64,000 nt of DNA. It comes from Candidatus Dormiibacterota bacterium. GTDB taxonomy: Bacteria > Chloroflexota > Dormibacteria > Aeolococcales > Aeolococcaceae. Every line of letters starts with the position of its first letter. Position 1 is the stretch's first letter. The stretch spans positions 256,001 to 320,000 of the forward strand of contig CAVPXI010000004.1 of NCBI GenBank assembly GCA_963709585.1, given 5' to 3'. The notes under the pieces were generated by a model. It was not told the DNA's origin. It saw only the letters and a list, made by a program, of their open reading frames with translations, and made no database searches. Made by a program: the position numbers and the translations under genes. Below are positions 15,219 through 17,051 of this stretch, piece by piece.

Positions 15219-16463
15219 TCACGCAGCTGGGGCAACCGTGGGGATCTTGAGTTGCATGACGGCGCTGCCGGCGAGGGTCAGCGCGGCCGCGAACACGATC
15301 GCAAAGGTCGTCGACACTCCGAGGACCGGCCCCGCCAGGGCGGATCCGATCGGCACGCCGGCGAAGTTGAGGCCGATCGAGACGGCGAAGGCGCGTCCGA
15401 ACCACGCCCGGGCGGTCCGGCGCTGGCGCAGCGAGAAGGCGCTGACACTGGACGCCGCGTCTGCGCCACCGGCGATAGCGATACCAATCGCGATCACCGC
15501 GATCGAGGGCACGAGCAGCGCCAGGACAGCGAGAGCCATGACGGCGCCGAAAAGGGCCATCAACTCGCGTTCCCGGCCCTCGGTCCGAATCCGCCCGGCC
15601 ACGAGCGCCGCGGGCACTCCGGCCGCACCGGCGAGCGCCAGGATGAAACCGACCATCGCGGCATTGCCGTGCAGATTGAAGACGACGACGGGCAGCGCAA
15701 CGATGACGATGCCCCAGCCGACGTTGAGCGTCGAGAACGAGATGGCGATCCAGCGCAGCGTGCGGTTGGTCACGACGTAGCGGAAGCCGCGCCAGGCTTC
15801 GTAGAGGATCCGGCCGGTCACCTCGCCGGTGTGGGCAGGCTCCCCGACCCCCTGCAGCGCCAGTGCGCCCGCCACGAATCCGACAGCCGCCCCAGCGAGC
15901 GCCGCCTCACTGCCGAGCAGTGCGATCAGCGCTCCGGCGAGACCGGGACCGGCGATGTTCGCAACCCCGTACAACACGCTGTCCGCCGCGTTGCCGCGGT
16001 CCCAGAGGTCGCGGGGCACGATCAGCGGGAAGAACGAGCGGGCGCCCGCGAGGCTGAGCGTGCTGGTGACCGAACCGCCGACCAGCAGCGCGTAGAGGCC
16101 CCACACCGGCAGCCGATTCGCGGCCGCCAGGATGACGATGACCGCGAGGCATACCGCGGCCACGATGAAATCGAGCGTCATGAGGCGCTTGCGCCCATGA
16201 CGATCGAGCAGCGCTCCGGCGATCGGGCTGAGCATCAGTCCTGGAAAGATGAGGAGGAAGAGGCTCAACCCGGCGACGCCCGGCGAGTGATATCGCTGCA
16301 GCGCAAAGATGACCAGACCGACGGTCCACATCTGCGACGCGGTGCGGGTCAGCAGCGAGCTGATCAGCAGCCGTCGAAATCCAGGAACGCGGAGCAGTCG
16401 GCGGTAGGTCGGGGGGCTCGCCGTGGCACGGGGAGCCGCGGTCAGATCGACGTTCGACGGCAC
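15219..16463 (-). CDS. MFS transporter (MFS_3 / macrolide-efflux-like)
   Basis: ~12 hydrophobic segments; motif A GALLDRHGRK. Confidence 0.9.
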   Translation of the reverse strand: MPSNVDLTAAPRATASPPTYRRLLRVPGFRRLLISSLLTRTASQMWTVGLVIFALQRYHSPGVAGLSLFLLIFPGLMLSPIAGALLDRHGRKRLMTLDFIVAAVCLAVIVILAAANRLPVWGLYALLVGGSVTSTLSLAGARSFFPLIVPRDLWDRGNAADSVLYGVANIAGPGLAGALIALLGSEAALAGAAVGFVAGALALQGVGEPAHTGEVTGRILYEAWRGFRYVVTNRTLRWIAISFSTLNVGWGIVIVALPVVVFNLHGNAAMVGFILALAGAAGVPAALVAGRIRTEGRERELMALFGAVMALAVLALLVPSIAVIAIGIAIAGGADAASSVSAFSLRQRRTARAWFGRAFAVSIGLNFAGVPIGSALAGPVLGVSTTFAIVFAAALTLAGSAVMQLKIPTVAPAA

Positions 16464-16622
16464 GGCGACATCAATCGCGCCGTATGGGCGCGCGGAGACG
16501 TCAGAACGGAAACCACGTTGTAGACACTACCAACTCCCTGCCAAACGGTGCGGGCGTCGTGGCAGCGTCTCCGGCGTTGTATGCTTGATCGAGCACGCTG
16601 ATCTCGGACAGCTGCGTTCCAT

Positions 16623-16997
16623 GGGGGCGTACTGGTTTCGACGGGGTCGTGGGTCGTGCGAATGCGAGTCGAGCCCCGGGCTCGTAAAACCGGGAAAAAT
16701 ATACGTGCGAATAACGCACCCCTCGCCCTCGCTGCGTAAGTAGCAGAGACGAAAAAAGCTCAGGCTTCGGCCTGACGTCGACCGTCTCCTCGGCTGTGGG
16801 AGACGGATCCGACGTTAATGCAAGCAGTCTCGCCGCCCGGTGGCGTCTCGGCGCCGGGCGGGACATTCACCGAGGCTGGCCGTAGCCGAGCCTGGTCCCA
16901 GGGCGCGGTTGGGGTGAGATCAAAACCGGGACTACACTCGTAGATGTCGCATGGAACGCGGCTTCGGACCCGGGTTCGATCCCCGGCGCCTCCACCA
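16623..16997 (+). ncRNA. ssrA: tmRNA; tag peptide (A)ANNAPLALAA encoded at 16707-16739
   Basis: 5' GGGGGCG...TTTCGAC; acceptor pairs with CGCCTCC including G3-U; T-arm GGGTTCGATCCC; 3' CCA; tag ends ALAA-stop; smpB 2.7 kb upstream. Confidence 0.97.
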
Positions 16998-17051
16998 CAC
17001 AATGAATACGGAAACCGCTTCCGACCGGGGTTTTGACCCCTACCGTGACCC

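Follow-up and report, generated by a model that had tools for sequence, protein, structure and literature searches.

To fold, a tmRNA has to join two strands that lie about 300 nt from each other into one helix that encloses four pseudoknots. The way in which it escapes misfolding in cells is, to our knowledge, understood in outline only, and for E. coli only. The ssrA gene studied here lies in a stretch of 64,000 nucleotides that was analysed as a whole and is referred to as the window. It raises the question of whether the leader of a tmRNA precursor could take part in this process. From the letters of the window it had been predicted that the 5′ leader pairs with the 3′ strand of the tmRNA's own helix P2, and that the resulting fold competes with the tRNA-like domain and covers the RNase P site. 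The explanations proposed were a maturation switch, a folding guide and a 5′ end that had been duplicated or replaced and survives as a relic.

The Rfam match of the gene clears the gathering cut-off of 47 bits by a wide margin and covers the full model (Table 1), which identifies it as a tmRNA. According to ARAGORN it is a standard one-piece tmRNA with the tag peptide ANNAPLALAA*. The ends are tRNA-like, with a 7-bp acceptor stem (complement 7/7), a T arm in the Rfam alignment and a terminal ACCA, and the tag ends in ALAA and a stop. Native P2 is well supported by covariation: among 62 related sequences, 99.5% of the cells were paired and six pairs were changed on both sides, compared with 0–3 in slid controls and with none of 500 shuffles. 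Its two strands pair through many wobbles, as the original prediction had stated. In the consensus, 6 of 18 pairs are G-U and a 2x2 loop is present, and the duplex energy amounts to -29.2 kcal/mol. The upstream neighbour of ssrA is a transporter-like open reading frame (15219–16463, minus strand), and because it is divergently oriented, ssrA is considered to have a promoter region of its own. The smpB gene is not adjacent to ssrA at this locus, and neither an integrase nor a regulator gene adjoins it.

Table 1. Positions in the window of the ssrA gene, its predicted leader and promoter box, and the strands involved in the alternative pairing.
Feature	Position	Strand	Sequence or detail	Basis
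-10-like promoter box	16580–16585	+	TATGCT (TANNNT type)	conservation in the genus
5′ leader of the ssrA primary transcript	16593–16622	+	about 30 nt, removed at -1/+1	conservation; start predicted
Invariant leader core	16600–16608	+	GATCTCGGA	unchanged in 25/25 distinct leader variants (genus and metagenome look-alikes)
Leader arm of the 14-bp helix (extendable to 16604)	16610–16623	+	AGCTGCGTTCCATG; last 13 leader bases and G+1	
tmRNA (ssrA)	16623–16997	+		ARAGORN; Rfam RF00023, 184.9 bits, model positions 1–374 of 374
Native 5′ strand of helix P2	16640–16661	+	P2a and lower P2b; natural partner of 16947–16968	Rfam alignment; MFE pairs
Tag reading frame	16707–16739	+	resume codon GCG to TAA	ARAGORN, coding part 85–117 of the gene
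P2 3′-strand target (extendable to 16968)	16950–16963	+	CATGGAACGCGGCT; P2b CAUG, internal loop GAA, P2a CGCGGCU	

The complementarity itself was found as predicted. The leader arm forms 14 contiguous pairs with its target, 13 of them Watson-Crick and one a wobble (U16613-G16960), and RNAduplex gives the unbroken helix an energy of -24.6 kcal/mol. Through the invariant UCGGA the helix can be extended to 18 pairs between 16604–16623 and 16950–16968, with one 1x1 mismatch and one bulge, at -27.0 to -27.9 kcal/mol. The 3′ two thirds of the leader (16604 or 16610 to 16623, base +1 included) are a near-perfect Watson-Crick match to the P2 3′ strand. Positions 16610–16622 lie upstream of the mature 5′ end and G16623 is base +1, and the pairing is possible in the precursor only. 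When the P2 3′ strand alone was offered as partner, none of the shuffled leaders equalled the real one (0/300, z -6.7; 0/500, z -5.4). With the whole tmRNA (about 374 nt) as partner, the contiguous-helix score was matched by 105 of 50000 leader shuffles, a run of at least 14 pairs with unlimited G-U was found in 159 of 20000, and the loop-tolerant RNAduplex energy was matched by 138 of 5000. At roughly 2 in 1000 per genome, such a helix is uncommon without being extreme, and with many tmRNA genes looked at it could have arisen by chance and then been inherited.

Tentatively, the leader:P2-3′ pairing is regarded here as a transient, precursor-only helix that would act in folding or in the timing of RNase P cleavage. 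This reading has to be weighed against another, itself doubtful and still a serious possibility, by which the pairing is a tolerated by-product. The leader would then be conserved for other reasons, and the match to P2 would have arisen once, by chance or as a side effect, and been inherited since because the native fold out-competes it. The transcription start region, a precursor-stabilising 5′ hairpin, contacts with RNase P or proteins, or a pairing of the 5′ half of the leader with the P2 5′ strand could be such reasons. The chance level, about 0.002 per genome or 0.03 by the loop-tolerant energy, is in line with a by-product. The match would also be partly automatic if one arm of the leader imitated the P2 3′ strand and the other arm paired with it. 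However, at most about 7 of the 14 pairs can derive from the leader hairpin in this manner, and the pairing of UUCCAUG with CAUGGAA cannot.

For any of this to occur in the cell, the transcript has to begin upstream of 16610. In all 38 genus sequences a box of the TANNNT type stands 7 nt ahead of a conserved block that starts at 16593. The box reads TATGAT, TATCAT, TACCAT, TATGCT or TAGAAT; three of its six columns are invariant, and its flanks are saturated with changes. A scan with the sigma-70 consensus found no full promoter and no -35 match, and the box was recognised by its conservation. Because the conserved block begins at 16593, 7 nt behind this conserved box, transcription probably starts at about 16592–16594 and produces a leader of about 30 nt. 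A start downstream of 16610, on which the prediction would have foundered, thus appears improbable on grounds of conservation. The source stretch occurs in soil and rhizosphere sequencing runs. In three RNA runs from soil (X5, X7 and X10, from three studies), tmRNA contigs begin at 16632 and end at 16985–16995, fused to adapter letters at both ends, which fits an abundant processed tmRNA. This RNA evidence consists of Logan contigs, of which none lies on 16580–16619, but contigs can show neither starts nor absence. In run X1, which is probably DNA, relatives diverge from the window sequence upstream of 16589 and 16593.

Across the 38 genus sequences, the minor-allele fraction was 0.040 for 16593–16609, 0.089 for 16610–16622 and 0.036 for the tmRNA, compared with 0.47 upstream of the box, 0.52 in the 7-nt spacer and 0.56 behind the CCA. 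The leader is conserved like the tmRNA while both flanks are saturated, and it is under purifying selection. The first 17 columns of the block, which opens with GCACG, include 13 invariant ones. Of the two halves of the leader, the one in the reported helix is conserved less, and the most conserved bases of the leader (GCACG and GATCTCGGA) lie mostly outside the 14 bp, as would be expected of a by-product. Against it, the 3′ half is still five times less variable than the neutral flanks. Neither does a consensus hairpin explain the conservation: RNAalifold predicted 0 pairs over 25 variants, and the hairpin of the window sequence, at -8.7 kcal/mol and z -1.24, is unremarkable. Leaders are also conserved within other genera that do not have the P2 complementarity, which again suits a by-product. 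No Rfam family matched the leader.

Other partners for the leader were considered. The candidate pairing of the leader UGAUCUC with GAGAUCA (16918–16924) was rejected, as the tmRNA side varies freely and the leader is invariant. No leader-trailer stem was detected either: the window leader and the 40-nt trailer form a duplex of -19.5 kcal/mol at z -1.36, equalled by 97 of 1000 shuffles. Such a stem is present in family f3, where the leader GGCUGGC can pair with the trailer GCCGGCC behind ACCA. The sequence CUCGU at -5 to -1 is a common leader tail across the class, and the GCCUCGU leader tails of sister lineages pair with tmRNA bases 19–25 in 19 of 61 groups.

The distribution of the complementarity was followed in 38 species genomes from the genus (g1), in another 30 from its family (f1) and in 15, 10, 14 and 9 from four other families of the class. 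A metagenome scan contributed 116 stretches, of which 49 carry a complete ARAGORN tmRNA, the rest being glycosidase-like coding matches or incomplete. Three of the 15 rows of family f2 (L028, L036 and L037) are from genomes flagged as unpublished, and no result depends on them. L088, which is without an ARAGORN call, was left out. For L082 the 5′ end was set from Rfam coordinates (acceptor 5/7), and this row was kept outside the uniform leader/target, P2-5′-strand and leader-tail tests. A loose-pattern scan of the genome collection returned 120 mostly random matches, of which only one was a real ssrA leader (L318).

Far from being absent in close relatives, which would have spoken against the prediction, the complementarity persists in 36 of the 38 genus genomes, where the duplex has a z of -1.9 or lower (25/27 and 11/11 genomes). 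The exceptions are L006, in which the leader has changed, and L017, in which the target has changed. Outside the genus, none of the 69 tmRNAs first sampled from other genera and families reached a z of -2. In a uniform test, the leader from -18 to +1 was paired with a 22-nt target and compared with 500 shuffles for unique leader/target pairs, and a clade was defined by the tag peptide A[ND][NDRK]AP[LV]ALAA. The 85 pairs outside this clade behaved like noise (mean z 0.08, sd 0.97, 3/85 below -2). Inside it, 19 of 33 pairs fell below -2, made up of 16 of the 20 genus or look-alike pairs and 3 of the 13 others.

Three related lineages, g51, L133 and L110 of g16, appear to share the complementarity in part and with somewhat different bases. 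In g51, an 11-bp run of UCGAAGCCGCG with CGCGGCUUCGG has a z of -4.1 (0/500 shuffles); it extends a shared GCYGCG core 5′-ward, and the genus of the window extends the same core 3′-ward. L133 (z -2.8) has the target CACGAGAC compared with CAUGGAAC in the genus, and CUCGUG in the leader compared with UUCCAUG, so that three pairs are changed on both sides. This apparent compensation may partly be ancestry, because the CUCGU tail is common across the class. L110 reaches a z of -2.15. On a short, midpoint-rooted tmRNA tree, built without rows L015, L054 and L099 (gaps or N), g51 is not the sister of the genus and is placed among lineages without the complementarity. That g51, L133 and L110 should reach the same target with partly different bases argues against a by-product. 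Altogether, the comparison shows that the complementarity is real and is inherited with a conserved leader in one genus of soil bacteria, and that it is echoed in three related lineages.

Variation inside the clade tells in the other direction. The target (16950–16963, extendable to 16968) shows no change in 36 of the 38 GTDB genus genomes; L104 differs at 16964–16965 and L017 at 16952, 16954, 16955 and 16964–16965. The L017 target carries three changes that native P2 accommodates through wobble but that break the leader helix, with no compensating change in the leader. With the target constant, most leader variants of the genus weaken the helix. An extra C, which forms a bulge, occurs in about half of the species; the remaining variants are the substitutions A16610 to C, U16617 to C, C to A at -3, A to C at -2 and U to C at -1, and a missing U. 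A few changes do keep a pair, such as C16612 to U opposite G in L102, or C16612 to U and U16613 to C, both opposite G, in the metagenome look-alike L173. Over 62 clade precursors, in which the non-genus leader columns are poorly aligned, 87.1% of the cells of the alternative helix were paired and six pairs were changed on both sides, versus 2–6 in controls slid by 1–3 columns. Variation that mostly weakens the helix, two species that lost the pairing with no visible consequence for the tmRNA and covariation not above the slid controls all favour a tolerated by-product. Yet a harmful competitor of -25 kcal/mol could be removed by one mutation, and 36 of the 38 species keep it.

The stability of the alternative fold was then compared with that of the native one. 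The minimum free energy of the full precursor (16593–16997) is -196.5 kcal/mol, with native P2, a leader hairpin (GCA.CGCUG, an 8-nt loop and CAGCUGC) and a 7-nt single-stranded tail. Forcing the leader:P2 helix gives -190.4 kcal/mol, which is 6.1 (MFE) or 4.0 (ensemble) kcal/mol above native. The pair probability of the alternative helix is about 0.002, corresponding to an equilibrium occupancy of about 0.2% in a nearest-neighbour model that leaves out pseudoknots, tertiary contacts and SmpB. Each of these should favour the native state. Such an occupancy would also be expected of a by-product. The fold proposed in the original prediction is retained in part. The alternative pairing is available, and it would include -1/+1 and displace the native P2 5′ strand; being 4–6 kcal/mol less stable in the model, it would compete with the tRNA-like domain and cover the RNase P site only kinetically, if at all.

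Folding of transcript prefixes gave the leader:P2-3′ helix as the minimum free energy structure for transcripts ending at 16959–16971, and with the T arm and the acceptor 3′ strand included, the helix loses. This behaviour is not specific: at least 13 pairs between the leader and the emerging 3′ region also form in 14 of 87 representatives outside the genus, as against only 4 of 12 inside it. Compared with what is expected of a helper helix, the pairing is less stable than the final fold in the pseudoknot-free model and so can resolve. A helper would also sequester the upstream strand before its partner is made, and here the helix uses the downstream strand, 16950–16963. Because its target is the downstream P2 strand, the leader helix could form only after the native partner strand has long been present.

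In the transient-helix reading, the P2 3′ strand would be captured by the single-stranded leader as it exits the polymerase. The T arm and the acceptor 3′ strand would be synthesised next, and the more stable native P2 and acceptor stem would replace the leader helix. The leader would then refold into its own small hairpin with the 7-nt single-stranded tail, and RNase P would cut it off, so that the exchange could not be reversed. In this way the P2 3′ strand would be held, or the RNase P site kept closed, for as long as the tRNA-like domain is unable to form. Because the native fold wins at full length by 4–6 kcal/mol, the helix would resolve unaided. Selection on the leader, persistence of the pairing through the genus, its specificity and the same target being hit by g51, L133 and L110 of g16 with partly different bases argue for this reading, as do the extra pairing of UCGGA, the self-resolving energetics, the prefix folds and the literature precedent discussed below. 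Leader variants that weaken the helix, the losses in L006 and L017, covariation not above slid controls, the location in the less conserved half, the chance level of 105 in 50000, the unspecific prefix folds and the kinetic-trap type of the competitor argue against it.

A more elaborate form, which is unlikely, would make the leader a built-in cleavable folding chaperone, a 'pro-sequence' complementary to both P2 strands. Its 5′ half (GCACG and GAUCUCG) would hold the G-rich P2 5′ strand during synthesis of the 300-nt pseudoknot domain, and its 3′ half would catch the emerging 3′ strand. The exchange to native P2 would free the leader, and cleavage by RNase P would report that folding is complete. 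The shorter GCCUCGU tails of sister lineages would be a simpler ancestral form of the same device. GCACG can pair with 16655–16659 and GAUCUCG with 16642–16648, both in the P2 5′ strand and the latter being P2a, but in the genus pairing of the 5′ half of the leader with the P2 5′ strand was not above shuffles (27 combinations, mean z -0.16, none below -2).

It is less probable still that the locus works as a regulated maturation switch, in which the leader:P2 pairing is an 'off' state that hides the RNase P site and blocks the tRNA-like domain until a factor acts. SmpB, another protein, a metabolite or temperature could be this factor, and tmRNA output would be tied to a signal. Three mutually exclusive pairings are present in the sequence (leader hairpin, leader:P2-3′ and native P2), and G+1 and -1 lie inside the alternative helix. 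In B. subtilis, the precursor and not the mature tmRNA is described as restructuring with FMN, and riboflavin as lowering the precursor (PMC5876405). Against such a switch, the alternative state is 4–6 kcal/mol less stable in the model and would not be the resting state. Furthermore, the leader matches no aptamer-like Rfam family, indels weaken the helix in half of the genus, two species have lost it, and smpB is not beside ssrA, so the context gives no hint. The switch and the folding guide are both kept as candidate roles from the original prediction.

The inverted repeat seen at the DNA level, with arms matching at 13 of 14 positions and 326 bp apart, would fit an element of the DNA in which RNA pairing is irrelevant, either a protein-binding site (operator or roadblock) or a recombinase inverted repeat with 14-bp arms. 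The leader core, which is invariant in sequence and lacks supporting RNA covariation, agrees with such an element. Recombinase core sites are generally spaced by tens of bases, however, and not by hundreds as here. Conservation of the second arm is fully explained by the strongly constrained RNA helix to which it belongs, and with no integrase or regulator gene adjoining, a DNA element is very improbable. The relic of the original prediction, by which the leader would descend from the tmRNA 5′ region (D-loop analogue and P2 5′ strand) as a decayed copy and have inherited its match, is scarcely credible. The leader arm is positionally equivalent to the P2 5′ strand (6/14 identical, six transitions), but two sequences that pair with one and the same strand are bound to resemble each other. 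Aligned locally with the first 50 nt of the tmRNA, the leader scores lower than the shuffle mean (p 0.86), and the acceptor 5′ strand has no copy in it. A decaying copy should also pair worse, whereas the leader has 13 Watson-Crick pairs against six wobbles and a 2x2 loop in the native helix. The best similarity of the leader was to the P2a 3′ strand and the T arm, and it was not significant (p 0.12).

For the transient precursor-only helix, related behaviour has been described in other RNAs. Full-text literature searches listed no paper on pairing of a tmRNA leader with P2, in agreement with the original statement that no example was described. When SRP RNA, RNase P RNA and tmRNA of E. coli fold, transient non-native structures are reported to occur (Wong, Sosnick and Pan 2007, as cited in PMC10687018 and PMC3874183), and they mostly precede native pairs between distal bases (PMC10687018). 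As far as these accounts go, the cases are alike in that a long-range helix is needed and that non-native pairing before completion yields to the native helix. They differ in that the non-native structure there comes ahead of a native one that requires distal partners, whereas here the downstream strand and a cleaved leader would be involved and the pairing is predicted only. In structural RNAs, helpful competing helices are described as enriched and traps as depleted (PMC3851714). From competitors that sequester the downstream strand of a long-range helix, a kinetic trap and not a helper is expected (Meyer and Miklos, as cited in PMC3851714).

While the 30S subunit is assembled, the leader of the rRNA operon makes a transient interaction with 16S rRNA (Balzer and Wagner 1998, as cited in PMC3851714). 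There too, by this account, a leader that is transcribed but absent from the mature RNA pairs temporarily with mature sequence and is later removed; the RNA and the partners are others, and experimental support there stands against a prediction here. The tmRNA of B. subtilis has a precursor-only structure responsive to FMN, and its maturation responds to riboflavin (Tapsin et al. 2018, PMC5876405). This resembles the present case as a precursor-only structure linked to maturation with an unresponsive mature form, and differs from it in being ligand-driven, in having no leader:P2 pairing in the passages that describe it and in belonging to an unrelated organism. Leader-trailer stems likewise join a leader with a distant 3′ segment of its own transcript, but here the partner lies inside the mature RNA and pairing with it competes with a native helix. 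With attenuators and riboswitches the locus shares a set of alternative pairings, as two partners are available to the 3′ half of the leader, the leader 5′ arm and the P2 3′ strand, and the P2 3′ strand can alternatively pair with the P2 5′ strand. It differs in having neither a terminator nor a ribosome-binding site, and the output would be RNA processing and not gene expression.

If the helix forms as proposed, it would be a new form of leader- or intermediate-assisted folding of a stable RNA, unlike the described tmRNA, SRP and RNase P cases in its use of a cleaved leader and of the downstream strand. Should the pairing be inert instead, a strong competitor of an essential helix would be carried through the genus without cost, and conserved complementarity alone would be weak evidence of function. 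If the transient helix is real, the ssrA precursor of this genus would offer a simple test system for leader-assisted folding of stable RNAs, and also for whether cleavage by RNase P is gated by folding.

The leader of the ssrA precursor, i.e. the approximately 30 nt preceding the first base of the tmRNA (G+1), contains two conserved blocks in the window's genus (see table). In several further genera of the same family, GCAC forms the first bases of the conserved block. A consensus hairpin was sought as the cause of the invariance of GATCTCGGA and the near-invariance of GCACG, and none was found, nor was any pairing exceeding that of shuffled sequences identified that could account for their conservation.

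Metagenome searches with a 19-base tmRNA pattern also returned protein-coding DNA reading GFDGVVVSDW, which we take to be a glycosidase-like motif. This coding DNA is a chance origin of false matches to the pattern.

Features of ssrA loci and pattern matches (f1, window's family; f2, f4 and f5, other families of the class; g, genus-level groups; L, single loci)
Feature	Location	Remark
GCACG	window 16593-16597	almost invariant among 25 leader variants
GATCTCGGA	window 16600-16608	identical in 25/25 leader variants
Trailer region compared	window 16998-17010; equivalent position in L001-L063	
Pairing of leader tail with tmRNA bases 19-25	f1 (g8, g19, g52, L133); f2 (g2, g3, g21); f4; f5	
Pattern matches in GFDGVVVSDW coding DNA	metagenome loci L119, L135, L148, L154, L163 and others	

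Assembled tmRNA contigs, which cannot show transcript starts, were obtained from three soil RNA runs, each belonging to a different study. Their starts lie at window position 16632 and their ends at 16985-16995, joined in each case to sequencing-adapter letters.

At the 3' end of the gene, a trailer motif of the type SGGTTSTTNCA follows CCA immediately and is a recurrent feature of family f2, shared by roughly half of the window's genus. The window and other loci diverge from this motif already at the first base past CCA. Such trailer differences might be traces of sequence inserted at the 3' end of ssrA. In several relatives (L011, L032, L039, L046, L048 and others) the full CCA is not encoded, the genes terminating in ...CCTCCA or ...CCAC followed by unrelated sequence, so that CCA would need post-transcriptional addition or completion.

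In family f3 (L073-L082), the leader sequence GGCUGGC is complementary to GCCGGCC in the trailer, immediately after ACCA. The pairing is retained in L077, L079 and L080 despite diverged leader and trailer sequences. It is a leader-trailer processing stem, present in f3 but missing from the window's genus.

Class-wide, the leader ends before G+1 in a tail of 5-7 bases with the consensus GCCUCGU. The register in which this tail pairs with tmRNA bases 19-25 (5' strand of P2a, ACGGGGC) is fixed. At least five contiguous pairs were detected in 19 of the 61 genus-level groups, against 0-5 of 61 for control registers slid by 1-5 nt, and two changes on both sides (g35, g52) kept the pairing. The window itself is devoid of it, 16616-16622 and 16641-16647 giving a run of 1. 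The class-wide tail pairing resembles a conserved hairpin that would act as a placeholder for the upstream strand of P2.
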